48,975 bases of DNA from the IMG/VR virus record IMGVR_UViG_3300043540_000102, positions 1 to 48,975 of that record. The stretch is one strand, 5' to 3'. The first letter of the stretch is position 1. The number at the start of each line of letters is the position of its first letter. Below the pieces are notes generated by a model, which was given only the letters and a program-made list of their open reading frames with translations, was not told where the DNA came from and made no database searches. Shown here piece after piece: positions 7,803 through 26,025 of this stretch. Made by a program: the position numbers and the translations under genes. This DNA is from a virus. Taxonomy: Duplodnaviria; Caudoviricetes.

Positions 7803-8093
7803 TCAGACTTGTTTGAGGGCTTCGGTGACGGAAGCCGCCCCGGTGTTGCCGACCAACTGTGCCCATTCTTCTTCAGTCGGGGCGACGGTGGGTGGCGTCG
7901 TCGCGGGGCGTTGCGCGGTCCCCGCAGGCATCGCCACCCCGCTCAGGATATCCACGATGCGATGAACGGCTTCAGCATCCGATGAATTGAAGATCAGCGA
8001 ACCGTCGCTGTGGGTCTTTGCCCGGAACACCGCGTTGATGGCGTCGGCGAGACGCATGTGGCTTCGAGTGGATTCTTGGTTGGTCATGTACAT
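7803..8093 (-). CDS. Hypothetical protein
   Basis: ORF fits the minus-strand operon and has an AAGGA RBS. Confidence 0.5.
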   Translation of the reverse strand: MYMTNQESTRSHMRLADAINAVFRAKTHSDGSLIFNSSDAEAVHRIVDILSGVAMPAGTAQRPATTPPTVAPTEEEWAQLVGNTGAASVTEALKQV

Positions 8094-8099
8094 TCCTTC

Positions 8100-8348
8100 T
8101 CAATCGTTCCAGACGTGGAGTGCCAGCCCGCTAATTCCGGGCTGACGGTAATGGGCGGTTTGGTTTCCGTCGAATCTTTCGAATTCGAAAACCTCGCCGT
8201 TGCCCACCTTGGGGACGACCTTGACATAGGCCGGATATTTACCGGGCGGAAAGCCCAGCTCAGGAGCATCGGCATCCACCGAGCGCTCGGTACTGTCGCC
8301 CCCCTGCTGGAGGGCGCTAACGGGGACGATCCAAGGGGCGATCTGCAT
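8100..8348 (-). CDS. Hypothetical protein
   Basis: ATG coupled (TGATG) to the upstream stop codon. Confidence 0.5.
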   Translation of the reverse strand: MQIAPWIVPVSALQQGGDSTERSVDADAPELGFPPGKYPAYVKVVPKVGNGEVFEFERFDGNQTAHYRQPGISGLALHVWND

Positions 8349-8842
8349 CACGCGGCCTCGGCGACGAAGGAGTGCTTGGTGGCGCACTCGGGGCCGATAC
8401 CCGATTCGATGCTGGACGGGACGGTCAGCTTGCGACCGCAGCGGCAGCACTTGCCCTCGTGCCAGAATTCGACGGCTTCGGGGACCTTCCCCGTCTCGAT
8501 GACTTCCTTGGTTATCATGGCCTTGTAGAACCACTGGAACCCCCGGACGCTCGGGGCGTCCGCCGGGACCTTGGACTTGGCGCCAACATCGAAGCCTTTA
8601 CCGACACGGAACTGGCCGAAATAGCTGTAGGCGTTCTCGTTGTCGGAGCCGGTGAGCAGGCTGACGAAGGCTATGACCTTGCCGACCGGGGCGGGCGCGG
8701 CGGGGTTGTAGTCCTCGGCGTAACGGACGCGGTAGGTGAACCGTGCGCCGGTTTTCTTCGAAACGAGGGTGAAGGTGGCGTTGCCGGCCAACATGAACTT
8801 GGTCGCGTCGGCCCAGCTGGTGATCTGATTGCGGGTAGTCAT
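8348..8842 (-). CDS. DUF6011-like Zn-ribbon protein
   Basis: C-terminal 'CCRCGRKLT-x-P-x-SI-x-x-GIGPEC'. Confidence 0.75.
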   Translation of the reverse strand: MTTRNQITSWADATKFMLAGNATFTLVSKKTGARFTYRVRYAEDYNPAAPAPVGKVIAFVSLLTGSDNENAYSYFGQFRVGKGFDVGAKSKVPADAPSVRGFQWFYKAMITKEVIETGKVPEAVEFWHEGKCCRCGRKLTVPSSIESGIGPECATKHSFVAEAA

Positions 8843-8888
8843 TTCGATGTCTCCTTTTCGCCCGCCGCCTTACCGCGGGGACAATTAC

Positions 8889-8917
8889 AGATTAGTCGAA
8901 GTTGTAACCGAAGTCAA
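8889..8917 (-). promoter_or_regulatory. Sigma70-like early promoter
   Basis: TTGACT-17 bp-TAATCT. Confidence 0.65.
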
Positions 8918-8958
8918 GTCCCTTTCGAAGAATATCTTCAGGCCGGGAACCCCGGGGC

Positions 8959-9687
8959 TTAAGCCCCGGGATTGGCGGTGGAGATGCGGCCCGCCTTGGC
9001 ATCCGCATCCAGCCAACCCAGGACCTTGAAGCGGAGGAGATTGGCCTTCAGCTCCGGATAGCGCTTTTCAGCCAGCTTGTAGGCGAGGGCGAACCACTCG
9101 GCGACCGTCTGGCCGTTCTGGTAGAGAGCGAACCGGGCTTCTGCCGCTGAATGACCTGCCGCGTCCTTGAGGACGGTGATGACGTTCTCATCCGCGTGCT
9201 TGCGGACGCCGACCAGCCACTGGCACTTGTCGGTGAACTTCTGGGCGTGCTGGGGCTTCGGGTGGTTCTTGAGCGAACCCTTCAACTCCACGACGCCTTC
9301 GGCGACCGGCGCGACTTCCTTGACCTTGGTAAGCTTGCCCTTCTTGAAGGGGATGACCTTTCCCCCGTCCAAGGCGATAGCCTCGAATTCGGTGACAGCC
9401 TTGGTCGTGGCGAGCCACTCGGCGACCTTCTTGGCCAGCTCGCGGATGCGCTTGCAGCCGGTGCCCTTGTCGGAGAAGCGATTGACTTCGGCCGGGACGC
9501 CTTCCACGTTGCGCTCGTTGAGAAAGCTGCGGAGGAGATTGAACACCTGGGGAAGCTCCTTGGGGACAAGGTTCTCCGGCATGAAATCGCCGGTCTCGCC
9601 GGAAACCCCGGAGGCGATGATGGTGAGGTTGGTGGACGCGCCCTTGATGGTCAGAGTGGTGACGGTGGTGTCAAGGGAGAGGAGCAT
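8959..9687 (-). CDS. Hypothetical Lys/Ala-rich early protein
   Basis: 242-aa ORF with an AAAAGGA RBS and its own promoter. Confidence 0.65.
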   Translation of the reverse strand: MLLSLDTTVTTLTIKGASTNLTIIASGVSGETGDFMPENLVPKELPQVFNLLRSFLNERNVEGVPAEVNRFSDKGTGCKRIRELAKKVAEWLATTKAVTEFEAIALDGGKVIPFKKGKLTKVKEVAPVAEGVVELKGSLKNHPKPQHAQKFTDKCQWLVGVRKHADENVITVLKDAAGHSAAEARFALYQNGQTVAEWFALAYKLAEKRYPELKANLLRFKVLGWLDADAKAGRISTANPGA

Positions 9688-9732
9688 TTCGAATTTCCTT
9701 TTCGGCCCCAGCCCTATCGCTGGTGTAGGTTT

Positions 9733-9761
9733 GTTCTAGTTGATACAACCGGAGAAGTCAA
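9733..9761 (-). promoter_or_regulatory. Sigma70-like early promoter
   Basis: TTGACT-17 bp-TAGAAC. Confidence 0.6.
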
Positions 9762-9780
9762 GTGTGTATCAGAAAGATTT

Positions 9781-11739
9781 CTAGATTATTTTCTCCTTGG
9801 CGTCGCCCCACGACGGCCCGCGCTCGATATCCACGCTCATTGGGATGGAAAGCGGGATGGCGTCCACCATCAGCTTCCCGCAGGCCCGGGCGTCGTCCGG
9901 ATTGTCGAAGGAGAAACCAAGCTCATCGTGGATTTGAATCATCGGGCAATAGCCTGCATCCCAGATATCCAGCATGGCGGTCTTCATCTGGCGGGCGGCG
10001 CTTCCCTGAACGAGATGGTTGAACGCCTTGTGGGTGTAGGCGCGGCGAATGTTGCCCTCGCCCCAAGTCTCGACTGCCGCCGCGTAGGGGCGAGCGGTCT
10101 GGCCTTTCTCAAAACAATCCTCTTCCCAAAGGTCATAATGGACCTTCGCCCCATCCAGCAGCCTCACATAACCCCGCTGAGACGCCCAAGTAGAGATGAC
10201 CTTGCTTGCCTGCGAGACAAAGGGCAGCTCGCGATCATATTGGGCCATGGTGGATTTCGCCTCGAACGGGCTCATGCCCGTCATGATCGCGAATTGGGCC
10301 ACACCGGCTCCGAACGCCTTGGCAAAGTTCACGTCCTTCGCGCGGCGGCGGATGAGCCGGGTGATCTCCACGACGTAGTTGTGAAAGTCGGTGGTCGGGT
10401 CCTCGCGATAGCGCCTGACGGCGATGTCCGCCCCTTCGATGTGGAGTCCCGGGGGGAGCTTGTCCGGCGGGAGCATCTGGAGGATATATGCCACGTGGAC
10501 GATGAGCCGGTATTCCTGTTGGCTGTAGTCGATGGCGTACCAGCTCCCAAATTCAGGGAGGAAGCACCGGCGGATGCGCGGGGCCAGCTCATCGTCGCGG
10601 GATGGCATCTGCTGTAGCGGCGGGTCCGAGTAGGAGAACCGATGCGACCTTGTGCCCCCGTTCTCACTTTTGAATTGGTTGATCGAGGCGTAAATGCGAC
10701 CGTGCTGGTTGTACCCGCGAATGTAGGTGCCGAGAAACTTGTTGGCGGCGTCGTCTATCTGCTTGGCCCGGGTAATGAGGCGGGGCAGCTGGGCGGGATG
10801 GTCCTTCATCCACGACGATTCGAATGATGGATTGCCGGCGGCTGTCCTTGGATAGTCGAGGCTCTGCGAATCGAAGATTTCCACCATCTTCTTGCCAGAA
10901 CGGAATTCCGACAGGCTGACAGGGCGGCCGAGGATATCCCTGATGGACGCAATGGTTGTGGTCAACTTGGAGTTGAATTCGATGATCGTCTGGTCAACCG
11001 CGTTCTCATCAATCCGGATGCCCCGGCGACGCATAGCCAGCGTCATCGGGATAAGGCGCATCTCCTTCAGGTAGGCGGCATAAACCCCTTCCTCGATCAC
11101 CCGGGGCAGCAGGGCATGATAGGCTGCGAGGGTCACAACCGCGTCGGTCTCGGCGTAGGGTCCGACGTATTGGGCCGGGAGCCGCCACATGTTCTCGGAG
11201 ACCTTGCCCTTGGGGATTCCCCGGTCAGCCGCCGCCTGATCCATCAGGCGCGTATCTTTCCCGGGAATTCCGATCCAGCGGCAAATTCCGTCCAAGCTGT
11301 ACGACAAGAGGCTTTCAGTGATAAAGACCGCGAGCGCTCCGGTGTCCCCGATATTCTTGGGTGGCTTGATCCCCCATTCCGTTTCGGTCCAACCCAGATC
11401 GTAGGAAATGTTGTGGCCTACAATGGTTGTGCCTTCTTGGGAGAATAACTCTCTCAAGAAGGCACCGACCCTTCCGTGATCCCAATTCGCCGTCTCGGGG
11501 TGATTGATGGGCAGGTAGATGGCCCCGCCTTCCCAAGCGAGCGAAACCCCGATCACGCAGCCCTTCCCGACGCACCAGCCGGGGCCTTTACCGTTCTGGA
11601 GCCCCTCATCCTTGGTCTCCAAGTCGAAGGCGACCACAGTGGCGTCACGAAGATTGGGCAGGTCAGTCGGGACCTTCCAACTGGATTCCGTAGGGAACAT
11701 CAGAACCTGCTTGGGTTGGGCGAAGAACTTGGATGCCAT
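9781..11739 (-). CDS. polA: DNA polymerase, family A, with 3'-5' exonuclease
   Basis: Exo motifs FDLET, GHNISYD and YAETD; motif A IDYSQQEYR; motif B RRAKDVNF; motif C QIHDEL. Start taken at MASKFF. Confidence 0.95.
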   Translation of the reverse strand: MASKFFAQPKQVLMFPTESSWKVPTDLPNLRDATVVAFDLETKDEGLQNGKGPGWCVGKGCVIGVSLAWEGGAIYLPINHPETANWDHGRVGAFLRELFSQEGTTIVGHNISYDLGWTETEWGIKPPKNIGDTGALAVFITESLLSYSLDGICRWIGIPGKDTRLMDQAAADRGIPKGKVSENMWRLPAQYVGPYAETDAVVTLAAYHALLPRVIEEGVYAAYLKEMRLIPMTLAMRRRGIRIDENAVDQTIIEFNSKLTTTIASIRDILGRPVSLSEFRSGKKMVEIFDSQSLDYPRTAAGNPSFESSWMKDHPAQLPRLITRAKQIDDAANKFLGTYIRGYNQHGRIYASINQFKSENGGTRSHRFSYSDPPLQQMPSRDDELAPRIRRCFLPEFGSWYAIDYSQQEYRLIVHVAYILQMLPPDKLPPGLHIEGADIAVRRYREDPTTDFHNYVVEITRLIRRRAKDVNFAKAFGAGVAQFAIMTGMSPFEAKSTMAQYDRELPFVSQASKVISTWASQRGYVRLLDGAKVHYDLWEEDCFEKGQTARPYAAAVETWGEGNIRRAYTHKAFNHLVQGSAARQMKTAMLDIWDAGYCPMIQIHDELGFSFDNPDDARACGKLMVDAIPLSIPMSVDIERGPSWGDAKEKII

Positions 11740-11741
11740 GG

Positions 11742-12089
11742 TTATTCCGTGTCTTTGGCGTAGTGGCCGCCGTCCTCGGGCGTCCCGGAGAGGTGGGGGG
11801 AGAAGAACAACCCCGGGGCGGGGGTGGGCTTCTTGCAGCGATCCGCCGCCAGCTTGGCATACCCGGCGATATCGTCCCAATGGTCCTGAATCTCCGGGTC
11901 ACCCACGAGAATCCGACCGATCTTGTGGGCGATCATGTGAAGCGACTCGCGCTTGGCCGGGTCAAGGACAGCCCAATTCTTGGACTCCTGACAAATGGCG
12001 AGGATTCCCGCGATGATGTTGGTCTGGTCGGTGTAGTCCCCATGAGTGGTCTCCCGGGCGGCGAGGATTGCCTTGATGTCTTGTCTCAC
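11742..12089 (-). CDS. DUF6378-like small helical protein, possibly nucleotide-pool related
   Basis: 'R-x-x-THGDY...MIAHKIGRI...DHWDDIAGYA' pattern; GTG start overlaps the HD gene stop. Confidence 0.65.
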   Translation of the reverse strand: MRQDIKAILAARETTHGDYTDQTNIIAGILAICQESKNWAVLDPAKRESLHMIAHKIGRILVGDPEIQDHWDDIAGYAKLAADRCKKPTPAPGLFFSPHLSGTPEDGGHYAKDTE

Positions 12090-12694
12090 TGGATGAATTC
12101 CTTGAACAGGTTGGTGAGGATTTCGGTCTGGCTGTGGTGGGCCAGCTCGATGGTAAGAGTGAGCCGCTTCGCAAGGTAGAGGTTCACCTGAACCCAAGCC
12201 GAGTCTGCCAGTTCCGTCTTGTATTCTTGGACCTTAAGCAGGCAGCGCTCGGCGACGATCCAGCCGTATTTGGAGCCGAGGAGCCACTCATGGAGCCCCT
12301 CCTCAGCCATCTCGATATATTCGCTGACCTTGATCTTCTTGGCCACGGAGGGCGCGGACGGGGGCGCGGCGGGGATATCCCAGTATTCGAGCAGGTTGTT
12401 GAGGGCGGTTTCCTCCAGACGATTGTGAGCAACCTTGAAGTCCTTGTCCCGGGCCTTCGACGGATAGGGTGCATCGCCCACGGCGATTTCCCCGCAGTCG
12501 TGAAACATGATAGCCTGCATCACATTCTTCTCCGGAACGCCGAAGATGCTGGTGTAAACCCGCAGGAGCTGCCACGTGTGTTCGGCGACCGATTGCCGGT
12601 GAAGCGTTGGCCAAGTGTGATAGCGTTCGACCTGACCCGCGAGCCGGAGATCAGATAGCACCAGATCGGCGGACGAATCGTCTTTCTTAAGCAT
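12086..12694 (-). CDS. HD-domain 5'-deoxynucleotidase (YfbR-like)
   Basis: 'V-x-RYH...QSVAEHTW...FHDCGE-x-x-x-GD-x-PYP-x-K'. Confidence 0.85.
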   Translation of the reverse strand: MLKKDDSSADLVLSDLRLAGQVERYHTWPTLHRQSVAEHTWQLLRVYTSIFGVPEKNVMQAIMFHDCGEIAVGDAPYPSKARDKDFKVAHNRLEETALNNLLEYWDIPAAPPSAPSVAKKIKVSEYIEMAEEGLHEWLLGSKYGWIVAERCLLKVQEYKTELADSAWVQVNLYLAKRLTLTIELAHHSQTEILTNLFKEFIQ

Positions 12695-13748
12695 GCTTCA
12701 CTTCCTTCTGTTTCAGCGCCCTATCGCGCCTATTAAACCATTCTTCGGCCGCCTGCTTCCAGTCCGGGGCGGTGACCCGATTCATGTGATATTCTCGACC
12801 CACCTTATTATGGGTCTTGTGCTCAGCGTAAGCCGCCGCGAGAGCGAATACTGTAGTCAAGAATGGGTTCCGAGTCGAGACAAAAATGTCGTTCTCGAAA
12901 AGCGGAGGGCCTTGGACGTGAAGCCGGTCCAACGCCTCCCAGAGCCGCGACAGGTCTTCATCGAAGGTGCTCGGATCACCGACCAGCGGCAGCATCTCAC
13001 CGTAGTTCATGTCCTGAGTGGAGAGGCTCAACGCGACCGTATCCGAGTGGGTGTAGTCGTCGGCTCCGATCCGCTCCTTTATCATCTCCCACACGTCCAT
13101 GTACATGTGATAGTCGTTCGACACCTGGGTGTATTCGCCCATCGGGACGCCGACCATGGATGCGATGTACTCCTGAAGGAGCGCGAAGTGGACCGCGTTG
13201 GCCCCGTAGGTTCCAAAAATGATGTCGTTGGAACGGTTGTACACCGTCATGTCGAGTCTGCCCAAGCGAATCCTGAAGACCGCGCAAAGGTTACACGGCT
13301 TTGCTATCTCCGGGGGCGTCGAGAAGTCTTCACTATCCCACATCTGTAGGACGGCCTGACGGGTGTTCGGGTCCACCTTGAGCTTGTCGATGATGTCCTG
13401 TATCTGGTCAACTTCGAAGTAGCTGCGCCAGCGGTAGCCGTAGGCGTCGGGGATGATCCCTGAAACCCCGTAGCGGGACGAAAAACCCTTAATGTACATG
13501 TCCAGAGGTCCCCCGTCCTCGCGCCCCTCCAACATCCACATCGCTTCGATAAGGTGGAAGAATGGGTTGGCGTCCCGGTAGGGATTCAGGAGGACATGTT
13601 GCTTGGGGTAGCGGTACACAGTCGCGACAGGCCCCGGATAGGTGATTACATCGCCGTTCCGGGACGGTTCCACCATGCCTTTGCGCAGAAGGAGGGCGAT
13701 GCCCCGGGGGAGGGCCTCGCGCACGTTCTTGACGGACAATCCAAACAT
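12687..13748 (-). CDS. Thymidylate synthase-fold dUMP hydroxymethylase-like protein
   Basis: AYG-x-RWR, TRQAVLQMWD, catalytic PCN, RSND...GANA (Asn indicates dUMP specificity) and H-x-Y motifs; long C-terminal extension; context of 5hmdU-modifying genes. Confidence 0.8.
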   Translation of the reverse strand: MFGLSVKNVREALPRGIALLLRKGMVEPSRNGDVITYPGPVATVYRYPKQHVLLNPYRDANPFFHLIEAMWMLEGREDGGPLDMYIKGFSSRYGVSGIIPDAYGYRWRSYFEVDQIQDIIDKLKVDPNTRQAVLQMWDSEDFSTPPEIAKPCNLCAVFRIRLGRLDMTVYNRSNDIIFGTYGANAVHFALLQEYIASMVGVPMGEYTQVSNDYHMYMDVWEMIKERIGADDYTHSDTVALSLSTQDMNYGEMLPLVGDPSTFDEDLSRLWEALDRLHVQGPPLFENDIFVSTRNPFLTTVFALAAAYAEHKTHNKVGREYHMNRVTAPDWKQAAEEWFNRRDRALKQKEVKHA

Positions 13749-14326
13749 TATCTCGACACTCCAAGTAGTTCGCACGACCTGTAGAAAGCTTCCTCACGGC
13801 CAAGGAATTCGACGGGGATTCCGTGCTTAAGGAGCTTCTCCGAGTTGCGGCGGATCGCTGTGACCTTATCGGTGATCAGGTCTGGGTTGACGGGCTCGAA
13901 AGGCTTCTGCAGCCTGATGGCCCGCTCCTTCCTCCGCTCGTTGACCGAGTACAGGCACGCCGCGAGCGGGGTGGACAGCTCGATGACATGGAGAGCCTGC
14001 CCGCTATCGGCGTGCAGCTTGGTCATCCGGTCAAAGCCGTACATCGACAACAGGACGCCTTCGAAGATGACGTGGTTGCCCATCCGGTGGAATTCGAGAA
14101 GGGTCTCGCAAATCCAGTCGGCGATGCCCTTTGCGGAGAAATTGTCACAACCTCCGGTTGGCGTTTCGTAGGGTCCAAAGACCACGACGGGGTAGGTCGT
14201 GCACTGATAGCCGATGACCTTGCAATCCGGATTTTTGATGGGGCGATACTGGCCACGGTGGGCCATGACCCGGCGGACAACGGTGGTCTTTCCGGCCCCG
14301 TTGGCTCCTCGAAGATTAAGCAGCAT
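13748..14326 (-). CDS. P-loop nucleotide kinase (candidate 5hmdUMP kinase)
   Basis: N-terminal Walker A RGANGAGKTT, GGCD, VIFEG and an R-x-x-x-R lid. Confidence 0.75.
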   Translation of the reverse strand: MLLNLRGANGAGKTTVVRRVMAHRGQYRPIKNPDCKVIGYQCTTYPVVVFGPYETPTGGCDNFSAKGIADWICETLLEFHRMGNHVIFEGVLLSMYGFDRMTKLHADSGQALHVIELSTPLAACLYSVNERRKERAIRLQKPFEPVNPDLITDKVTAIRRNSEKLLKHGIPVEFLGREEAFYRSCELLGVSR

Positions 14327-14432
14327 GCGATTCCCTCCAAGCCTTGATGGCTCCAACTAGCTCTTGAAACTTGTCCCCCAGAAATTCCCCATCTTTAGCC
14401 CAGACGTTGGGCCTGGGGATATTCCGCCTCAC

Positions 14433-15260
14433 TCATCTGACCTCCTCGGGCATCACCGATAGCATTCTCTCTGCCGTCTGCCCCCAACCATGGAGGTTGT
14501 GGCGGGTTTCCTTGATGTCCTTCCCAACCCAATAGCGTCCGTTGCGATAGGACTTGTATTTACACAGGACGGTTTCCGCTTCCTGCATGCTGCAGGCGCG
14601 ATGCCCCGAGGCGGGCTCGCGGAAGATCGACACGGACTTGATCAGCTGATCAAAGACCCAAGCTTTCGACGGCGGGGGCAGGGCTCCTTCCATATCCGCA
14701 AGGAGCAGGTCTAAGCACGCAGCGGGCTGAGCGTAAAGCGTCGTTTTCTCATCGAAGATGACGGTGTGGCCCCAGACGACTTCGAGCATGTCGGCGATCT
14801 TAAACCCGATCCAAGGACCAAACTGTGGCCAGCCCCGGGCGATGTCGATGACCTGAGCCGCCGTGACAGACGCCTCCAGATCACAAAACCACGCCATGAC
14901 CGGGCGGCGCGAGAAATGGTTGATGGCGTCCACGCATTTCTGGCCACGGAAGTGCCGCCGCTCAGCACCCCGGGGCCAACGCCCACCGTTCGGTGGGGGA
15001 GCGACGTTCCCGGCAGCTACAAGCATCCCCTTCCAATAATCCCTATCCTGGAATTCCGAGAGGTAGGACGCCACCCCAACGTCATAGAAGCACCAATAGG
15101 CGAACAGCCATCTGGAGAGCTGCGGAAAAGGGAGCTGAAGGTTGGTGAGCCCAACATAAACCGGGTCAAGGTCCTTGGTGTCGATCAGCTGGGCGGCGAA
15201 GTTGCCCACTGTGAGGTGTTGGGGAGAAAGATTGGGCTGGAGGAAGAGCGTCTGGCTCAT
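14433..15260 (-). CDS. Amino acid:DNA transferase (aGPT-Pplase2/ADDT family)
   Basis: DLDPVY, WLFAYWCFY, WPRG-x-ERRHFRG, FGPWIGFKIADM and QEAETVLCK motifs of the glycosylase-fold transferases of M6/PaMx11-type phages. Confidence 0.85.
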   Translation of the reverse strand: MSQTLFLQPNLSPQHLTVGNFAAQLIDTKDLDPVYVGLTNLQLPFPQLSRWLFAYWCFYDVGVASYLSEFQDRDYWKGMLVAAGNVAPPPNGGRWPRGAERRHFRGQKCVDAINHFSRRPVMAWFCDLEASVTAAQVIDIARGWPQFGPWIGFKIADMLEVVWGHTVIFDEKTTLYAQPAACLDLLLADMEGALPPPSKAWVFDQLIKSVSIFREPASGHRACSMQEAETVLCKYKSYRNGRYWVGKDIKETRHNLHGWGQTAERMLSVMPEEVR

Positions 15261-15300
15261 GGTCGTCCTTCTGGCGGGCCTATCCCCGCGTTCTGTATCG

Positions 15301-15329
15301 AATCTACCCGACCGCGCCCGGGGCGTAAA
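15301..15329 (-). promoter_or_regulatory. Sigma70-like promoter for the ADDT-to-polymerase operon
   Basis: TTTACG-17 bp-TAGATT. Confidence 0.5.
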
Positions 15330-15332
15330 GCG

Positions 15333-15363
15333 AAAAAGGCCGCCAAATGGCGACCTTCTTTTT
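15333..15363. terminator. Probable bidirectional terminator
   Basis: A5-AGGCCGCCA/TGGCGACCT stem with A and T tracts on the two sides. Confidence 0.55.
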
Positions 15364-15395
15364 GGTTGTATCCTTTTTCAAAAGGCAGCGACAAT

Positions 15396-15446
15396 TTGGC
15401 CGAGCGCTTTGATTGCAGCCATGCGAATTTCCTCATCTAAGTCCAG
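15396..15446. repeat. 51-bp direct repeat, copy 1
   Basis: 48/51 identical to 16542-16592. Confidence 0.95.
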
Positions 15447-15541
15447 GAGAATGGTGATGTTCTTGAGTCCAGGAGAATGGTGATGTTCTTGAGTCCAGGA
15501 GAATGGTGATGTTCTTGAGCCCAGGAGAATGGTGATGTTCT
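15440..15541. repeat. Tandem array, about 4 x 26 bp (AGTCCAGGAGAATGGTGATGTTCTTG)
   Basis: Units start at 15440, 15466, 15492 and 15518; the last is 24 bp with one mismatch. No spacers. Confidence 0.95.
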
Positions 15542-15582
15542 CCGGGTTGTGGCCCACCGCGACCAATACAGAAGTCAAGCCC

Positions 15583-15864
15583 CTAATCGAAGATTTTTCT
15601 CAGCTCCAACACATAGTCCTCCTGCAGCTCAACGGCAGTGATGTCTAAGGGGATTCGGTCCCGGTGGGAGAGAGCAATCAGAGGCTTCAGAAGGCTCCCA
15701 GTCCCTGCCGAAGGCTCCAGAATTCGAACCGGGCGGCCGAGGCGCTTGTGCGTCGCGACGATATCCGGCCAGATGGCTTCGGCGATCCGCTCCGCCGTTT
15801 CAGGCGGGGTGAAGAAGTCGCCGAAGGTCTTGGTCATGCGGCCTGTTTTGAGGTGAGTGGTCAT
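15583..15864 (-). CDS. SAM-dependent amino-methyltransferase, N-terminal (SAM-binding) half
   Basis: Motif X FFTP, motif I ILEPSAGTGSLL and motif II AVEL; ends before motifs III and IV. Confidence 0.8.
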   Translation of the reverse strand: MTTHLKTGRMTKTFGDFFTPPETAERIAEAIWPDIVATHKRLGRPVRILEPSAGTGSLLKPLIALSHRDRIPLDITAVELQEDYVLELRKIFD

Positions 15865-16568
15865 TTTTGATAATCCGGGTGGAGCTGGTTGAGAAACTTC
15901 TGGGCACCCGCGAGAGATAAAGCCGCAGTTCCGGCTTTCCTTCGCTTGTCGTCCTCCCTCATGATTTTGTTGTATAAGCTTATCGACTCAGGATGGTTCA
16001 ACTGATTTGCGATGCTCTGCAAAGTGGCAGCTCCTCCGGTGATGAGAATTTTGCCTGTGGTGTATGAACCATTTTCAATTATCTCCCGGCGAGATGTCAC
16101 CTGACCCCAAAGAGGTTGATTGCCCCCGAGCATCCTTCTATGTTGCGCGAGTATCAAGACGGGCTCATCCAGAGATTGGTTCAATTTCCAAGTTGCAATC
16201 TGGATGCCCCAAAGAGAATCCGGTACAGGCTCCCGGTTCACCCCCGGGAGGGCTTCGCTTGGACCGATAGACACCAAACCGCCTTTAGTCCCCCGGAGAC
16301 CAACAAATGAGATGTTGCCCAAGCTGGGCATGTATCCTGGGAATCGTTTTGCGTCATTATCGGGGAGCAAGAACAACAATCTCCCGTCAGCGGAAAGAAG
16401 CTTTTGCCCAGCCAACACAAATTTCTTCCAGAATACTGTACCTTTGCCATCACTCCACGGTGGGTTCCCAACTACAAAGTCAAACCGCTCCGCTCCGAAG
16501 TCGTGCGTTAGGAAGTCAGTGAGCTTGACGGTGAGGTTCAATTGGCCGAGCGCTTTGATTGTAGCCAT
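15861..16568 (-). CDS. SAM-dependent amino-methyltransferase, C-terminal (catalytic) half
   Basis: Motif III DFL, motif IV FDFVVGNPPW and LL-x-x-DGRLLFLLP. Likely start is the ATG at 16568 after GAGGA; a TTG at 16598 is the alternative. Lower GC than the flanks. Confidence 0.8.
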   Translation of the reverse strand: MATIKALGQLNLTVKLTDFLTHDFGAERFDFVVGNPPWSDGKGTVFWKKFVLAGQKLLSADGRLLFLLPDNDAKRFPGYMPSLGNISFVGLRGTKGGLVSIGPSEALPGVNREPVPDSLWGIQIATWKLNQSLDEPVLILAQHRRMLGGNQPLWGQVTSRREIIENGSYTTGKILITGGAATLQSIANQLNHPESISLYNKIMREDDKRRKAGTAALSLAGAQKFLNQLHPDYQK

Positions 16569-16592
16569 GCGAATTTCCTCATCTGGGTCCAG
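16542..16592. repeat. 51-bp direct repeat, copy 2
   Basis: Contains the RBS and first codons (MATIKALGQ) of the catalytic MTase half. Confidence 0.95.
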
Positions 16593-16601
16593 AAACAAGA
16601 C

Positions 16602-17408
16602 CTATTTTCCACGCAGGATCGCGGCGACCCGAAGTGCGGCATAGGCCGCGCCAACCGTCCCGCTCTTGGCCCCGCCGGTGGCGAGGATCGCCCGGCCGTT
16701 CTCCGCCACGAGGCAGGGGGCGGTCGTGACAGCGTAGGGGCGTGCGCCGAGGGTCGGCTGCAGGTCGGTGGCCCCACTCTTCGCCGAGCAGCGCGCCTGC
16801 GACACCGCGAGCCGCTCCGGGGTGATCGACTTCGGGATCAGTGCCGTACCGTCTCCGATCCAGCTGCGGCCGTCGCTCATGTTGAAGGCGACCACCTGCC
16901 GGTAGGGGGCCCATGTGTCGATAACCGGGTTGGGAATCGGTGACCCCCGGAAGGACCAACCGAGCTTCGCAGACACATCGCACGAATAAAGCTCCGGGGA
17001 CCAGATGCCAGCCGCCACGACGATTCGCTTGGCAGTGTAGTCGCCGACTGAGCCGCTTGCCACCACGCGGTCAGGGTACTGGCGGACATCGCTGATGTGG
17101 TCGTTGATGTGCGGCCCCCCGAGAATATCCCCCGGTTCGATGCGTCCGCAAGTCGTCTTGAAGCCGGAAGGGTGGATGGTGAATTCGACAGTGTGGACCT
17201 GATAATACAGCTTGAGAAGGTCCATGCACGGATCGAGGCTACCCCCGAAGTTGGTCAGCCACGACGGCTTGATCACACACCCGGCGGCGCGCGACCCAGC
17301 GGTGGGCTCCTTGTTGTCGATCACGAGCACGCTGTACCCGAGGGCGGTCAGGTGTCGGGCGATCACAGAGCCGAACAGCCCTGCGCCGATAACGATCACG
17401 TCAATCAT
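16602..17408 (-). CDS. FAD-dependent oxidoreductase (DAO/glycine oxidase-like; candidate flavin lyase of DNA hypermodification)
   Basis: VIVIGAGLFG Rossmann motif, GS-x-AAG, VVAAGIWS, GARPY and ATGG-x-K-x-G; start MIDV with an AAGGA RBS. Confidence 0.85.
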   Translation of the reverse strand: MIDVIVIGAGLFGSVIARHLTALGYSVLVIDNKEPTAGSRAAGCVIKPSWLTNFGGSLDPCMDLLKLYYQVHTVEFTIHPSGFKTTCGRIEPGDILGGPHINDHISDVRQYPDRVVASGSVGDYTAKRIVVAAGIWSPELYSCDVSAKLGWSFRGSPIPNPVIDTWAPYRQVVAFNMSDGRSWIGDGTALIPKSITPERLAVSQARCSAKSGATDLQPTLGARPYAVTTAPCLVAENGRAILATGGAKSGTVGAAYAALRVAAILRGK

Positions 17409-17432
17409 GTGGTTTATCCTTGGGTAAGGCGG

Positions 17433-17456
17433 AAAGCCCCGCCGGGTGGCGGGGCT
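17433..17456 (-). terminator. Intrinsic terminator
   Basis: AGCCCCGCC/GGCGGGGCT stem followed by TTT. Confidence 0.55.
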
Positions 17457-17461
17457 CCTGT

Positions 17462-17524
17462 TCAGGCGAGGAAGCGCAGGCGGCGGTGGTGCTCCTTCCG
17501 CTCGATTTCCTCGTATTTGCACAT
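17462..17524 (-). CDS. 20-aa peptide MCKYEEIERKEHHRRLRFLA
   Basis: AAGGAG RBS; ends directly before the terminator. Confidence 0.4.
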   Translation of the reverse strand: MCKYEEIERKEHHRRLRFLA

Positions 17525-17536
17525 GAAAGTGCTCCT

Positions 17537-17803
17537 TCAGGACTGCTGGGTGGGGAGGGTGTGGACGGCGGAGGCGATGGACTGCGCGACCAGCGCCCGC
17601 TCGATGATCTTCTGGTTGGTGGTCTGGCCGACAAGTGCCCAGATGAAGCAACCGATCCATCCAGCACCCGACCAGCCGATGAGAAAATTGATGAGGGCAA
17701 CCCCGGCGGCGTTGTCGTGGCCACGGCCCGCGGCGATGACGGCGGGGAGGAAGTAGAAGAAAATGAAGGTGGCGATGAGGATGAATGCGACGAGAGAGGC
17801 CAT
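17537..17803 (-). CDS. imm: Superinfection immunity protein (T4 Imm-like)
   Basis: 'YFLP-x-x-IA-x-x-R-x-H-x-N...IN-x-x-x-GW...GWI-x-x-x-IWA' pattern. Confidence 0.85.
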   Translation of the reverse strand: MASLVAFILIATFIFFYFLPAVIAAGRGHDNAAGVALINFLIGWSGAGWIGCFIWALVGQTTNQKIIERALVAQSIASAVHTLPTQQS

Positions 17804-17852
17804 GAGAGCGTTCCTTTTTCCGGAGCGGCCCAATCGCCGTTCCAATACAAAG

Positions 17853-17881
17853 GTTCTACCGGAGCCCAATACAGAAGTCAA
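17853..17881 (-). promoter_or_regulatory. Sigma70-like early promoter
   Basis: TTGACT-17 bp-TAGAAC. Confidence 0.6.
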
Positions 17882-17925
17882 GTGGGTTTCGAAAAATAAT
17901 TTCGCCCCCAACCCCGCTTCTTAAT

Positions 17926-18138
17926 TCACCAGCCATTGGACGCCTTCTTCCCCCGGGGAAACGGAATCACGTTAGCCGGGAGTGGAACCCCCGGGGCGGT
18001 GAGGCGCTGAGCGAGGAGCCCAGCCGCGCAGATCAGCTGGACGACCCTGCACGCGAGCAGGCCGATCAGGCTAAGGGCAACCTTCGCGAGGTTGTAAGCC
18101 ATCGCGAGGGCGCAGAGGACAACGAGAAGCTCAATCAC
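17926..18138 (-). CDS. Small membrane protein
   Basis: GTG start overlaps the upstream stop; hydrophobic N-terminal half. Confidence 0.45.
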   Translation of the reverse strand: MIELLVVLCALAMAYNLAKVALSLIGLLACRVVQLICAAGLLAQRLTAPGVPLPANVIPFPRGKKASNGW

Positions 18139-18488
18139 CCGAAAACTCCCGGGCCATAGAGGGTGGTCTGGTACTTGTAGTGTAACTTCCAGAAGTCCAT
18201 GTACAGATCGTGGAGGGGCTTCTCCTTCACGCTGGGCTTGAACTTCGGGTAGTCGATCTTGTTGACCTGATCGGCGAGGAGACCGGCGAGCAGGGTGCGG
18301 GTGATGAATGCCCTGTACGCATAATCCGCGTCCAGCGTCTCGATGATCTCGGGCTTTTTCTTGGCCCAATGCGGGAGCTTCAGGAAAGACTCCAGATGCT
18401 CCTTTTTCCGGGACCGGACCAAGACCTGCTTGGGGTTGTTGCGATCCGCAACGATGGAAAGGAAGGCGTCGTTCAAACAGACCCACAT
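18135..18488 (-). CDS. Conserved phage hypothetical protein
   Basis: MW-x-x-x-x-x-AFLSIV...LVRSR...DY-x-YRA...IDY-x-x-FK pattern. Confidence 0.7.
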   Translation of the reverse strand: MWVCLNDAFLSIVADRNNPKQVLVRSRKKEHLESFLKLPHWAKKKPEIIETLDADYAYRAFITRTLLAGLLADQVNKIDYPKFKPSVKEKPLHDLYMDFWKLHYKYQTTLYGPGVFG

Positions 18489-18489
18489 G

Positions 18490-18837
18490 TCACTTGTCCT
18501 TGAGTTGGAAAATTCCGCTGGGAAGGCGGACGATCAGACCGGCCGCCACGAGCTTGCTGGTGGAGGCGCTGACCGAGTTAGGGCTAAACCCCGCCTGTGA
18601 GAAAGCCGCCTTGAACTTATCCCGGGCCTTCGGCCCATCCGCGAGCATGCTCAGGATCATCTTCGAGCAGGCTTGGTCGGCGAGGTCGCCCATCGAATCG
18701 CGGCCCGCGTATTTGCGGCCACCAAAGACGCGCTTGGGACAGGGGGCACCCTCCTCGCCCGCAGACGGGGTGATCTGGAGCCCGGTGATGGACTTGTGGG
18801 GGATGAGCGCCCCGGTGATCGTTGAGATCATCTCCAT
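18490..18837 (-). CDS. Putative winged-helix protein
   Basis: C-terminal 'SPNSVSASTSKLVAAGLIVRLPSGIFQL'; the true start may be 18872 across a frameshift. Confidence 0.5.
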   Translation of the reverse strand: MEMISTITGALIPHKSITGLQITPSAGEEGAPCPKRVFGGRKYAGRDSMGDLADQACSKMILSMLADGPKARDKFKAAFSQAGFSPNSVSASTSKLVAAGLIVRLPSGIFQLKDK

Positions 18838-18912
18838 GGGGCGTAGAACACGAATTTGTAGAGATGGGCCATGCTGTTCTCCCTTTCTGGGCCTTATTAC
18901 CCATGGGTGTAG

Positions 18913-18941
18913 CCTTTAATGTAACAGGCTTCAGAAGTCAA
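18913..18941 (-). promoter_or_regulatory. Sigma70-like promoter
   Basis: TTGACT-17 bp-TAAAGG. Confidence 0.5.
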
Positions 18942-18958
18942 TCGCATTTTCTGAAGAT

Positions 18959-18987
18959 AAAGAGGCGAGACTCCTGCGAGTCTCGCC
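18959..18987 (-). terminator. Intrinsic terminator
   Basis: GGCGAGACTC/GAGTCTCGCC 10-bp stem followed by TCTTT. Confidence 0.6.
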
Positions 18988-18988
18988 C

Positions 18989-19507
18989 CTACCAAATCGC
19001 CCGGTAAACCGGGGCGCTCCTGGTTGGCCCGATCTGGAGCTTCGAGCCGGTGAATTCGATCCAGACACCATCCGTGTTGAGCTTCGGGGGGAACAGGATC
19101 ATGGCGTCCTTCGAGTTGTAGCGGATGATGGCCGCGAGGTTGACCCGCTCCAGCCAGTCGCGCAGCGACGGGTCCTTGTGCGCCTTAGGGAAGTCCGGGT
19201 CCACCCAGACCTGCACGACGGGCAGAATGGTCGCCTCACCCGAGTCGTTGTTGAGGGTGATCTTGTCCATGACAATGTCGATGACGTAATGGGCGCGGTC
19301 CGGGCGGGGCAGCGGCTGGTCCGTGGCCTTCCAGACGCAGGTCCACCCCCCGCATTCGAACGGGAACCCGGACTTATGATAGATTGAGCAGCCCTTAAAG
19401 GCCCGGACGTGCTCGCAGCGCACGTTTGCCCCCTTGTTAAGGCCCTCGACGGGCAGCAGGCGACAGCACAAAGTGCACTCGCCGCATTGACGGGGGGGCT
19501 TATCCAC
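18989..19507 (-). CDS. Cys-cluster (YkgJ-like) metal-binding protein
   Basis: C-x2-C-x2-CC...C-x-H...C-x-IY...P-x-x-C-x4-C. Confidence 0.7.
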   Translation of the reverse strand: MDKPPRQCGECTLCCRLLPVEGLNKGANVRCEHVRAFKGCSIYHKSGFPFECGGWTCVWKATDQPLPRPDRAHYVIDIVMDKITLNNDSGEATILPVVQVWVDPDFPKAHKDPSLRDWLERVNLAAIIRYNSKDAMILFPPKLNTDGVWIEFTGSKLQIGPTRSAPVYRAIW

Positions 19508-19682
19508 GGTTCCTCTCCTTTTCCAGTTTACGATGCGCGCAAACCAATCGGCCGATGCACGGTCCCTGATAGGGCATTTTCCGGCCGTGCGCCCGAGCGA
19601 GGATCACCCCGATTTCGCGATAGGGGATGCCCTTGCCCAGGAGCGGCTTGATCTCTGAGAACTTAAGCTTCGGCATGCTCAT
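19500..19682 (-). CDS. Small basic hypothetical protein
   Basis: Overlaps its neighbours in the operon. Confidence 0.45.
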   Translation of the reverse strand: MSMPKLKFSEIKPLLGKGIPYREIGVILARAHGRKMPYQGPCIGRLVCAHRKLEKERNRG

Positions 19683-19939
19683 TGGAGCTTCTCCAGAACC
19701 TGCTTGATCAAGAGCTTCCCGGCGTGCTCCGACACTTTGGAGATGCAGAGCTGCGGGTTATCTGTCGTCATGTAGGCGACCATCGACAGAATCCAGCCCA
19801 GCGAGAGTATGATGTCATCGATGTCGAGCACGTCGAAGTTTTCCTTGTACCGGGCGACCGTCTCGTTGATCAGGGCGACCGAGGCCCGTTGGGAGGGGGT
19901 GTAATCCTCCCCCGGCACCAGCTCGTTGAAAATGCTCAT
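19679..19939 (-). CDS. Hypothetical protein
   Basis: ATGA-coupled to the upstream gene. Confidence 0.55.
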   Translation of the reverse strand: MSIFNELVPGEDYTPSQRASVALINETVARYKENFDVLDIDDIILSLGWILSMVAYMTTDNPQLCISKVSEHAGKLLIKQVLEKLQ

Positions 19940-20937
19940 TTCAGCACCTTTGTGTTGTTCTTGTCGATCTGCGGGGCGAGGCTGATGTCGTTGCCCAGCT
20001 CGCGGCCCTTGTGATAGCCGGTGGCGTCGAACTTACTGGCGGCGGTCCTGGCTTTCGATTCCTGACGCTTCCAATAGTTCTCCCACTTCCTGTCTTCAGC
20101 GGCTTCCTGAGCCGCTGTCTTCGGCTTGCCGAGGCGCTTGGCGTCCTCGACGCTGTAGCCGAAGGCGAGGTAGCTGGCGACCGAGGAGGACCAGCCGTCC
20201 GCCATGAACTCGTTGTAGCGGATGGTCCACGCCGCCGAGTCCTGCTCCTGCTTGACCCGGCGGGCCTTCGTGGTCCCCGGAGCCCAGCCGTTGCGGAAGT
20301 CGTTGTTGGCGTCCTCTTCGTCGCGGACATAATCCCCGAGGGTGATGGTGAGAGCGTTGCTCTTCGCTCCACTATTCGTGGAACGAAGTGCAGCGTCCTT
20401 CTCCTTCTGTGCCGCAATCTCCGCTTCGCGCTTCTCCTTGAGTCGCTCCACGAGACGATCCGCGATGCCGACCCGCATGGAGTAGGCGTACTTGGACAGG
20501 CGCTTGCGGTTGTCGGGGATTTCCTCCGCGATCACCCGGTCAATCGCCATGACAAGATATTCATACATGGTCCGGGCGATGGCGACGTTGACCTTCCGTC
20601 CGATGAGGGTGTACCCGGCGAACTTTGCGCGGGTGCCGGTGTAGGTCTGCCGGGGCTGGACGTGAAGGAAGTTGAGGGCGGCGATGCCGACCATGAGGTT
20701 GCGCCGATATTTGTATCCGGTTTTCTCTTCGTGGGTGGCCTTTTCGCGAGCCGTCGAATCGTCTCCCTTGCCGCCCGCCGATTCGACGGCGGCGAGGTCC
20801 AGATTGTACTTTTCGAGAAGCTCCTGCGCCTTACCGGCTGCCGCCAAGGCTTCCGCCTCATTGCCGCGACCGTCGTTGGCCAGCGTCAGCAGCTTCTGGA
20901 TGCGGGCGATGATGGAGAAGAGGACTTGGTCATTCAT
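19936..20937 (-). CDS. DUF2786-domain protein
   Basis: N-terminal 'RIQKLL-x-LA...EA-x-AA-x-x-KAQELL-x-KYNL'; AAGGAG RBS. Confidence 0.8.
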   Translation of the reverse strand: MNDQVLFSIIARIQKLLTLANDGRGNEAEALAAAGKAQELLEKYNLDLAAVESAGGKGDDSTAREKATHEEKTGYKYRRNLMVGIAALNFLHVQPRQTYTGTRAKFAGYTLIGRKVNVAIARTMYEYLVMAIDRVIAEEIPDNRKRLSKYAYSMRVGIADRLVERLKEKREAEIAAQKEKDAALRSTNSGAKSNALTITLGDYVRDEEDANNDFRNGWAPGTTKARRVKQEQDSAAWTIRYNEFMADGWSSSVASYLAFGYSVEDAKRLGKPKTAAQEAAEDRKWENYWKRQESKARTAASKFDATGYHKGRELGNDISLAPQIDKNNTKVLK

Positions 20938-20980
20938 TTCGAAACTCCTTCTGCGGGGACCTAATCGCCACCGTCGCCTT

Positions 20981-21009
20981 CTTATAGCGATCTGTAACCC
21001 AAGCGTCAA
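20981..21009 (-). promoter_or_regulatory. Leftward promoter of the divergent control region
   Basis: TTGACG-17 bp-TATAAG. Confidence 0.65.
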
Positions 21010-21196
21010 GCGAAAAATTACTGAATGCGACGATTTCTGTACCTAGCGTGCGGAAAGAGGCGAAACACTAGGGCTAGGGGCTGCGAAAGATTTTTGAATC
21101 TGGAGTGGAAAAAGGACTCGACGTGTTGGGGGCGTTCGGTATTAGCTCGCGATTCCCGGCGTCATTAGGACGGGGCGAGAGAAAGAGAAATCACCC

Positions 21197-21808
21197 ATGA
21201 ATCAAGACATCCTTTCTGAAATCGAAGGCGACGCAAAGGCTGCTATACCTATCGACCGGCTCACCAGGCTCCGGGCCACGGCCCAGACCCTTCGGACCAA
21301 GCAGCTGGAGCTGGAAGAACTCAACCGGCGGGTCAACGAGACCAAGAGCGAGATCACCAAGCTGGAGAGCCGGGACCTCGTGGACCAGTTCGCCGAGGCC
21401 AAGGTGAAGACCTTTGAGCTGGAGGCTGAGGGAAACTATCCCGCCTGTAAGCTCCAGACCAGGAACATCTTCAGTTCCACCATCCCCAAGGGCGGCGAGG
21501 ATGCGGCTTTCGCCCTGCTCAAGGAGCTGGGTTACGCGGATACAATCAGGAACGTCGTCACCATTGAACTGGAGCCCGACACCCGGGAAGCCATCATGAA
21601 GGTGATTGGCGAGACCGATTCTGATTATACCGAAAAACGAATGGTTTTGCCTCAGACGCTCGGGCGGATTATCCGCGAGCTTTACGAGGCTGACAAGCTT
21701 GCGCCCGCTGCCGATGGCGGGGCAGACCCGATGAAACTCCTCGGGGCATACGTCGGAACGAAGATTGAACTCAAGATCGAGAAAGTAGAGACCAATGGCA
21801 AAAAGTAA
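21197..21808 (+). CDS. Conserved replication-module protein (coiled coil)
   Basis: First gene of the rightward arm, upstream of the SSB-like gene. Confidence 0.6.
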   Translation: MNQDILSEIEGDAKAAIPIDRLTRLRATAQTLRTKQLELEELNRRVNETKSEITKLESRDLVDQFAEAKVKTFELEAEGNYPACKLQTRNIFSSTIPKGGEDAAFALLKELGYADTIRNVVTIELEPDTREAIMKVIGETDSDYTEKRMVLPQTLGRIIRELYEADKLAPAADGGADPMKLLGAYVGTKIELKIEKVETNGKK

Positions 21809-22700
21809 CAACACACTGACGGTGATTGAAGAGCTGAAAAACAACATCGCCGTCCTCGACCCGTCGGTCCTCAGCGAACTGGAGGGGGACGCCGGAAGGG
21901 GCCTGTCCAAGAAGATCGAGGACAATGTCCTTCCACTGGTGAAGTTCCTGCAGAGCAACTCACCGGAATGCGCCAAGCGCACCCCGACCTATGTTGAGGG
22001 AGCCGAGGCGGGCGACTTCCTGTTCAAGAACAGAGAAGTGCCGGTGGTGAAGGGCGAGACCGGCTTCCTGTTTCAGCCGCTCGCCCGCCAGCGCGCCTAC
22101 GTCCAGTGGAAGCCGAATCGCGGCGGCTACGCGGGTCAGCACGCCGACATTCCGCCCGAGGCGAAGGAGCGGATTGACATCAACCCCGAAGATGGCAAGG
22201 AGCGTCGTGTGTTGGGCCTGCCCAACGGTGACTATCTGGAGGAAACGGTGTACTTTTACGGGTGGCTGGAGGACCGCTCGCTCTGGGTGCTTCCGTTCCG
22301 CTCCACCGGCCTGTTGGTCGCGCGCAACTGGATGACGGGTCTCAACAACACCAAGCTTCAGGTCAACGATCCGGCGGGGGTGAAGTACCTTGAACTGCCG
22401 ATCTGGGGGAGCATCTGGCGTGTCTGCACTGAAGTCGCCTCCAACGCAGAGCACACCTGGTTCGTGCCGAAGCCGGTGCGGGTCTCGAAGTTCGGTGATC
22501 CGGGCTTCGGTATCCAGGCCTATCACGAGGCGAAGAAGGCGGCGCTGGAGCTGATCGACCAGCTCGAAAGCGGCGAGAAGGTCGTGGAGGCGATGGCCCT
22601 AGACGACACCCCGGCGCGCTCGAACACGGGCGCAGCGTCCAACCGCCCGGCGAGCAGGGGCGCTCCACAATCGCTCGGGGACACTGATATCCCCTTCTAA
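21795..22700 (+). CDS. Putative single-stranded DNA-binding protein
   Basis: Acidic C-terminus ending DTDIPF; lies before the primase; LQ-x-x-SPE and GA-x-AGD motifs. Confidence 0.6.
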   Translation: MAKSNNTLTVIEELKNNIAVLDPSVLSELEGDAGRGLSKKIEDNVLPLVKFLQSNSPECAKRTPTYVEGAEAGDFLFKNREVPVVKGETGFLFQPLARQRAYVQWKPNRGGYAGQHADIPPEAKERIDINPEDGKERRVLGLPNGDYLEETVYFYGWLEDRSLWVLPFRSTGLLVARNWMTGLNNTKLQVNDPAGVKYLELPIWGSIWRVCTEVASNAEHTWFVPKPVRVSKFGDPGFGIQAYHEAKKAALELIDQLESGEKVVEAMALDDTPARSNTGAASNRPASRGAPQSLGDTDIPF

Positions 22701-22718
22701 TTGTTGGTGAGTCTATCG

Positions 22719-22750
22719 CCCCCGGGTCACGAAAGTACCCCGGGGGTTTT
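22719..22750 (+). terminator. Intrinsic terminator
   Basis: CCCCCGGG/CCCGGGGG stem followed by TTTT. Confidence 0.6.
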
Positions 22751-22777
22751 CCCGTCTCAGCTAATCGAGCGCCAATC

Positions 22778-25225: not shown

Positions 25226-25439
25226 GGGGGACACCTCCCCCCGCTTAAACCCAGAACCGACCGACAACCCAAAAGTCCAAAATTAAGACTTGCATTGGGC
25301 TCGAACAACTCTCATTGTGTCTGGGGCAAGATTATGACGAGAACGAAACGAGAATACTGGTGGAAAAAGGGGCCCACTCTAAACCAGGGCCGGAATTCCC
25401 CGGAATCGCCATGGTTTGGTGCCGTCTCGTGCGTAAAAA

Positions 25440-25680: not shown

Positions 25681-25684
25681 GGGG

Positions 25685-25713
25685 TTGACGGAAACGCCCC
25701 CGGGGGTTATTCT
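25685..25713 (+). promoter_or_regulatory. Sigma70-like promoter
   Basis: TTGACG-17 bp-TATTCT. Confidence 0.55.
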
Positions 25714-26021: not shown

Positions 26022-26025
26022 TCTC

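Follow-up and report, generated by a model that had tools for sequence, protein, structure and literature searches.

Two overlapping genes with complementary amino-methyltransferase motifs in reversed order within a phage thymidine-hypermodification cluster

Gene content and setting of the locus

The window, i.e., the whole stretch of DNA that was analysed, is the full 48,975-nt record of a virus, about 71% complete, matched by one hot-spring metagenome run that may be its source. Its minus strand carries an operon composed of an FAD oxidoreductase gene, a cassette of two overlapping genes bearing methyltransferase motifs, and the genes for an amino acid:DNA transferase, a 5-hmdU kinase, a thymidylate-synthase homologue, an HD protein and DNA polymerase A. 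The two open reading frames of the cassette, which a first-pass annotation had presented as a split and reordered amino-methyltransferase, were confirmed at their positions, both on the minus strand and intact. The gene that comes first on that strand carries the later motifs of such an enzyme and is called here the back half; the second carries the early motifs and is called the front half.

16602..17408, minus strand: FAD oxidoreductase, homologue of the PaMx11 gp47 lyase (34% identity, E 1e-40)
15861..16568, minus strand: back-half gene, 235 aa, with motif III (DFL), motif IV (NPPW) and the region of motifs V-VIII, then a tail of about 110 aa
16517-16509, minus strand: motif III, DFL, in the back-half gene
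16455..16466, minus strand: catalytic motif IV, NPPW, in the back-half gene
15861..15864, minus strand: ATGA stop/start overlap of the two genes, with a run of five A just before it
15583..15864, minus strand: front-half gene, 93 aa, with motif X (FFTPP), motif I (EPSAGTG) and motif II (AVEL), then a helix
15697..15717, minus strand: SAM-binding motif I, EPSAGTG, in the front-half gene
14433..15260, minus strand: amino acid:DNA transferase, homologue of PaMx11 gp46 (40% identity, E 1e-57), with a match to Pfam ADDT

The order of the motifs on the coding strand is reversed, with III to VIII and the tail first and X, I and II second. The back half begins more likely at ATG 16568 than at the in-frame TTG 16598, which would add 10 residues. 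Together, the two halves amount to 328 codons, all of them open; given its base composition, the 111-codon tail of the back half would be open by chance with a probability of 0.004, and 5 to 11 stops interrupt the remaining five frames of this gene. The tail (110 aa) had no Pfam or PDB match and gave weak AlphaFold2 single-sequence models (pLDDT 32.8 and 52.7); its position suggests a target-recognition region.

As regards the class of the enzyme, the SAM-binding motifs X, I and acidic II are all present in the front half, and NPPW in the back half has the NPP(Y/F/W) form of the gamma class. The back half matched Pfam MTS and Eco57I below the cut-off, its nearest Atlas clusters being Eco57I-like methylases (scores of 0.89 at most), and the front half matched an N6_Mtase Atlas cluster with a feature score of 0.94 and a TM of 0.75. 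The best DNA-methylase match in the PDB was M.BseCI (E 0.013), and the beta-family profile N6_N4_Mtase gave no match at E 0.1. Within the motif VIII region, read by eye, the back half has Leu where relatives show Phe. No intein or HNH family was detected in either ORF, and the halves overlap directly, with no endonuclease gene between them. Among the matches listed, no RNA dataset contained the cassette; the search for structured or splicing RNA returned three Rfam matches only, far below the gathering score, and none of the four regions for which RNA folds were computed had a z below -1.2.

The neighbouring genes belong to a hypermodification set (12086-17408 and 26087-26968) comprising a dUMP hydroxymethylase-like protein, the kinase, the amino acid:DNA transferase and the FAD lyase; a gp50/HMUDK_hel homologue lies 11 kb off, on the opposite strand. 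According to the available text of PMC8989533, gp46 and gp47 of PaMx11 make 5-aminomethyl-dU (5-NmdU) from glycinyl-thymidine, gp47, a homologue of MnmC1, being the enzyme that yields it. No homologue of the gp48 acetyltransferase was found in the window (best E 0.54, in a record about 71% complete), so that the final base may be 5-aminomethyl-dU. In related clusters the slot between lyase and transferase differs: in L052, L054 and L057 the two genes abut or have a 76-codon ORF between them, and a kinase/phosphatase gene lies there in RHph_TM26. Other methyltransferase-like genes, with motifs read by eye and no match to the profile used below, occur in or beside related clusters (L059:2827-3480 and L073:2755-3477). 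An amber recoding that would fuse the lyase and the back half was considered and rejected, as TAG serves as the stop codon of polA and of the primase-polymerase and TnpB genes, and the lyase of a relative can be aligned up to residue 264 of 267.

Repeats, promoter fragment and assembly at the cassette edges

The following features were found at the edges of the cassette.

16542..16592, minus strand: upstream copy of a 51-nt direct repeat, with a GAGGA ribosome site and ATG 16568
15563..15595, minus strand: upstream half of a putative native phage promoter, with an AT-rich element and a TTGACT box and no -10 box
15566..15567: divergence point of a minor allele (depth 3.9 vs 10.4)
15440..15541: tandem repeat of a 26-nt unit, 3.9 copies
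15396..15446, minus strand: downstream copy of the 51-nt direct repeat, where the ATG opens merely a 14-codon frame
15333..15360, minus strand: terminator-like hairpin with a U run, separating the cassette from the gene for the amino acid:DNA transferase; the stem is present, the region has a z of only -1.2, and it is absent from the consensus scan

The stop of the FAD oxidoreductase gene is followed by 9 nt and then by the upstream repeat, which supplies the first 9 residues of the back half. The two copies, 1,146 nt apart, differ by three substitutions and one indel over 55 columns (about 7%). The ribosome site of the upstream copy (-6.3 kcal/mol with the anti-SD) is the strongest of the eight starts compared, tied with that of the other copy, and that of the front half is weak (-3.6). 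When translated, the upstream repeat resembles a HEAT repeat (E 4e-4; 20.9 bits, under the Pfam cut-off of 23.5), a likeness that may be due to chance since GAGGAA reads Glu-Glu. The repeat was also considered as a possible second motif II and rejected, its best position ranking 129th of 62,144 windows scored, vs rank 1 for the real motif II. Repeat and spacer patterns had no exact match in viral, metagenome or genome contigs, nor had a 22-nt piece of the tandem unit in viral or genome contigs. A 59-codon frame (15257-15436, minus strand) begins within the downstream repeat, runs through the hairpin and shares an ATGA with the start of the transferase gene; with a low codon score and no family, it is probably spurious.

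The promoter half overlaps the last codons and the stop of the front-half gene, and 17 of its nucleotides are identical to an intact copy at 17866-17882. The window contains six TTGACTTC sites, vs 0.85 expected in all, and five of them are on the minus strand; in four a -10 box of the TA type follows at 17 nt, whereas the 15578 copy has none. From their consensus, these sites would be promoters. The putative family comprises 18941, 17881, 15578, 9761 and 8917 on the minus strand, with 26026 and 29679, both TTGCCT, on the plus strand; its layout is an AT-rich element, TTGACTTC, a 17-nt spacer and TA(G/A)A. Words of TGTATTGG are repeated at the 17881 copy and could be operators. A relic of motif III had been considered in the in-frame codons past the front-half stop and was dropped, those codons being the -35 box of the promoter.

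Repeats of this kind can mislead an assembler, and the sole run in which the cassette was found may be the source sample itself. A mis-join that reversed an ordinary gene was nevertheless judged barely credible: one Logan unitig spans 15537-18841, with all junctions in that interval, at a depth of 10.4 and without any mismatch or indel within the cassette; a second one (11182-15469) crosses the downstream repeat; and the repeat copies differ from each other at four places. These unitigs represent a second assembly, probably not a second sample. The tandem array, whose copy number was not settled, was the only feature left unresolved in the k-mer contigs, and an artefact is nearly excluded. A 392-nt contig (depth 3.9) matches 15537-15566 and then continues with other sequence, which reveals a minor allele at the cassette edge; its other end was not among the matches listed for 8000-27900. 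No excision product or circle joint was among the matches listed either, at a depth of about 10 at which rare forms would escape. Clusters of differences at 10489-10537, 18837-18912, 23629-23683 and 27196-27251 (depth 2.6-6.1) point to a minor co-occurring strain of the phage.

Complementarity, rarity and composition of the two halves

A profile was built from 39 non-redundant unsplit phage methyltransferases, drawn from 49 of 50 proteins, and among the 1,069 six-frame segments of the window only the two ORFs of the cassette passed it. The E-value of the downstream ORF (2.6e-15) is inflated, as the profile set had been gathered using that ORF; that of the upstream ORF (8.7e-7) is free of this bias. 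The downstream ORF covers profile positions 13-84 and the upstream ORF 75-146, and three other profiles align the halves end to end: phrog_9133 (730-789, then 791-856), PADLOC PDLC04134 (265-332, then 333-400) and PDLC03267 (9-77, then 79-116). The first-pass annotation had considered that no motif is missing or duplicated. Complementarity was clearly upheld, whereas the absence of duplication was not, because the helix after motif II is present in both ORFs (positions 75-84); this double coverage arises since the first 9 residues of the upstream ORF are the direct repeat. When the halves are abutted, 22-23 residues separate the motif II acid from the motif III Asp (hand count), a spacing whose most frequent value in relatives is 22 (14 of 38 blocks, although the regular expression mis-picked some). 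As the last codons of the front half overlap the promoter element, its last four or five residues may be promoter-derived, and the seam can be placed only to within about five residues. A comparison of the relatives favoured by each half was uninformative (rho 0.17, n=147).

The ESMFold2 complex of the two chains obtained a score of 0.87, vs 0.12 for the best control. The runs share at least 68% of contacts, with a partner pLDDT of at least 74, and in a benchmark 51 of 78 solved pairs and 2 of 108 mismatched pairs reach that mark. The best predicted contacts join residues 46-50 of the front half with 28-33 of the back half, and 76-78 with 14-19, as would be expected for a Rossmann sheet. Such a model speaks for fit, not for selection, because the halves of a divided gene, whether it is alive or dead, tend to score well owing to their likeness to solved structures. 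The heterodimer proposed earlier is structurally plausible from this score, and M.MpeI, an enzyme cut at the same II/III position, is a precedent (see below).

The layout of the cassette was seen only once. For the back half, word searches with the whole protein or with residues 1-135, over proteins of 134-429 aa, gave 1,286 and 202 candidates, of which none but the protein itself matched; none of 10 candidates from viral contigs was related, and genome contigs gave two short spurious matches. The protein clusters of both halves have one member each. Searches of phages and plasmids by tblastn returned distant unsplit methylases only, with best E-values of 3e-3 and 8e-4. As these searches fell short of an exhaustive scan of all protein clusters with a profile, the back half may have distant relatives. 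For the front half, no longer (fused) form was found among 259 candidates, and 245 loci with relatives were gathered, of which 150 distinct ones were examined. An NPP-aromatic motif follows in frame downstream in 133 of them and a variant motif IV, recognized by eye, in a further 15, the last two stopping at a contig edge. All 148 assessable relatives are therefore unsplit and canonical and none is reversed, so that the equally permuted homologues sought at the outset did not appear in this sample, which represents one family, as all its members were found via a single word of 8-9 residues. The two-gene reversed layout is a singleton. No naturally split amino-methyltransferase was found in the literature searched, most subscription papers and REBASE being outside that search, and the available portions of PMC12707154 and PMC10406627 contain nothing on split enzymes.

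Base composition differs between the halves. GC3 is 0.56 (126/226) in the back half vs 0.72 (65/90) in the front half (Fisher p=0.007), the latter being phage-like with respect to 19 phage genes (0.77). This gap exceeds all 218 overlapping within-gene comparisons, and GC3 of the back half is below that of all 350 overlapping reference windows of equal length; among 28 further ORFs, one has a lower value (0.49). Left unconstrained, a changepoint analysis places the shift at front-half codon 8, with a p of 0.056 only. The difference points to a donor gene that was itself mosaic, or to two donors joined. The simple permutation of one gene, put forward as a captured intermediate, does not fit such unequal GC3. 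The ATGA overlap, previously taken as an argument against decay, proved to be weak evidence: ATGA was found at 8 of 16 other junctions, GTGA at 4 and TTGA at 2, counts that give no rate since these junctions were chosen because their ORFs abut.

Possible function and origin, and comparison with known enzymes

The arrangement is real and unusual, and the function of the enzyme is a prediction from models. The reading we prefer, with a probability of roughly 0.45, is that of a gamma-like amino-methyltransferase made of two chains after a recent rearrangement, with its cut between motifs II and III, and predicted to be active. Read-through transcription from the FAD-oxidoreductase gene would cover both halves, the large chain would be initiated at ATG 16568 from the ribosome site inside the upstream repeat, and the small chain would be made by reinitiation at ATGA. 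A Rossmann sheet is predicted to be rebuilt from strand 1 and motif II, both on the small chain, and their partners on the large chain, strands 4 and 3; the two chains would likely reassemble into a single SAM-dependent enzyme, whose methylation target in DNA would be adenine or cytosine N4. From the motif roles given in the accessible part of PMC7544214, the small chain would hold SAM with X, I and II and the large chain with III, and NPPW would act on the flipped base, the tail presumably recognizing the target. Concerning its origin, the inter-repeat stretch is exactly one rotated 1,146-nt unit, which suggests the footprint of a circular rearrangement at the repeat, via integration of a circle or via duplication and trimming, of a donor that may itself have been mosaic. 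The cassette is accessory, since related clusters hold unrelated small genes or nothing in the slot and none of 29 hypermodification loci matches the profile, and its product would be an anti-restriction methylase rather than a core pathway enzyme.

Modest support for function comes from the intact codons, the good ribosome site and the M.MpeI precedent. Under a neutral model, both frames would remain intact with a probability of about 0.05 if each repeat copy had drifted by 3%, a rough estimate that is valid only if the copies began identical and that prior divergence would void. Against function stand signs of decay at the locus (a promoter without its -10 box and a tandem expansion), as well as the singleton status, the GC3 gap, the minor allele, the weak ribosome site of the front half and the Leu in motif VIII. 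There is a real possibility, which we hold to be short of probable, that fragments of one or two methyltransferase genes were shuffled in a moron hot spot, with frames still intact only because the event is recent, and that no working or selected enzyme resulted. The layout is a singleton, at least four junctions between repeat, back half, front half, promoter half and tandem array fall within 1.3 kb, a minor allele diverges at the edge, and the slot in L052, L054, L057 and RHph_TM26 holds unrelated small genes or is empty; ATGA overlaps are common in this phage, and cutting and rearranging one gene yields complementarity without any function. Such debris is less easily reconciled with 328 codons open despite repeat copies that differ by about 7%, with a back half that has a strong ribosome site and an in-frame ATG, and with two donors, if GC3 is so understood, whose ends match within about five residues, which would be unlikely without selection.

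The two genes may also give a single permuted chain (III-VIII, tail, X-I-II, a beta-like order with gamma-type motifs), through a -1 slip on the A run or following the recent loss of one base. The stop comes after a run of five A, and the -1 frame, in which the front half is encoded, stays open over 41 codons ahead of the front-half ATG. No canonical slippery heptamer is present; the downstream fold is not strong (z -1.0), the unitig has no indel, no fused relative was found among the candidates searched, and the GC3 shift is close to the gene boundary. Although beta-class enzymes do carry IV, the target-recognition domain and I on one chain (available text of PMC7544214), this reading appears improbable. 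Even less probable, and proposed by analogy with MnmC2 on tRNA, is a tailoring role in which 5-aminomethyl-dU from the neighbouring FAD lyase would be methylated. It is suggested by position, between the gp47 and gp46 homologues, by gp47 being an MnmC1 homologue that yields 5-NmdU (PMC8989533, in part), by the lack of a gp48 homologue in the window and by the back half sharing the frame of the lyase, with one TAG between. This idea, present in the first-pass annotation as a choice of substrate, was not borne out: with flanks of up to 6 kb included, the single profile used matched none of 29 hypermodification loci, among them the 8 that encode a gp47 homologue, and 6 of these 8 likewise lack gp48 in the available DNA; no MnmC2-type match was found for either half; and NPPW and all profile matches lead to DNA amino-methyltransferases.

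Among known enzymes, the preferred two-chain methyltransferase is closest to the gamma class (M.TaqI, M.BseCI and the small phage FPTP-ILEPSAGTG-NPPF family), with which the cassette has in common motif X, EPSAGTG, acidic II, DFL and NPP-aromatic; both halves align to one unsplit phage family of that class. Gamma enzymes, however, have the order I-IV-TRD on one chain, whereas the cassette has two chains and IV before I. From its motifs it would likely work in a gamma-like manner without being a regular member. Its linear order of catalytic motif, variable region and SAM motif is that of the beta class (M.PvuII, M.RsrI, CcrM; accessible part of PMC7544214), the members of which are single chains with DPPY/SPPF (bioRxiv 10.1101/2023.12.13.571470, in part), in contrast with NPPW and a stop between the halves here.

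Natural two-chain DNA methyltransferases in print are C5 enzymes cut elsewhere, as far as the available text of PMC3404938 goes. M.AquI and M.EcoHK31I, described there, form one catalytic unit from two polypeptides with complementary motifs, as in the cassette, but their chemistry is C5 (PC motif), they have been shown to be active, and their cut lies either in the variable region or at motif IX, outside motifs I-VIII, whereas the predicted enzyme of the cassette has an amino-type motif and a cut at II/III through the SAM-binding sheet. This cut is that of the engineered cp62M.MpeI and [1-61]+[62-395], which are artificial and C5; it yielded the permutant of highest activity and the two fragments that complemented each other best, and the authors found no natural C5 enzyme with the cp62M.MpeI topology (PMC5944983, available portion). 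The nrdA-a / mobE / nrdA-b genes of Aeh1 are likewise a phage enzyme gene in two pieces, with a terminal sequence from foreign DNA (PMC3045599, in part). Unlike in Aeh1, the cassette has no endonuclease between or beside its halves, its foreign leader is just 9 residues long, and its order is reversed.

Methyltransferase classes are related by circular permutation, and the duplication and fission-and-fusion routes both predict intermediates (PMC3320104, in part). The gene order of the cassette is already beta-like, with the halves one base from fusion. That it represents a natural split and active amino-methyltransferase with a two-chain SAM sheet, possibly from two donors, and a fission-and-fusion intermediate between the gamma and beta layouts, is nevertheless rather doubtful. 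If active, it would offer a small (328 aa), directly testable natural intermediate in which a II/III cut known from engineering is also used in nature, and a possible split-methylase reporter. If inactive, it would be an ordinary snapshot of moron shuffling.

Other features of the window deserve mention. An intact MT-A70 family methyltransferase gene (31340-31939, plus strand) constitutes a second, ordinary methylase of the phage. A GcrA-like regulator is encoded at 29160-29663 (plus strand), which we take as a hint of an alphaproteobacterial host, and a TnpB / IS605 OrfB gene lies at 32442-33641 (plus strand). A 33-nt imperfect inverted repeat with short repeats, in non-coding DNA after the primase-polymerase gene (25605-25672), is a possible replication origin. 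Among the head genes, an 878-aa protein (38915-41551, plus strand) combines an N-terminal NUDIX and a C-terminal ADP-ribosyltransferase domain, and a gene among the likely structural genes (28-1029, plus strand) matches the E1_FCCH domain of ubiquitin-activating enzyme (E 7e-14).
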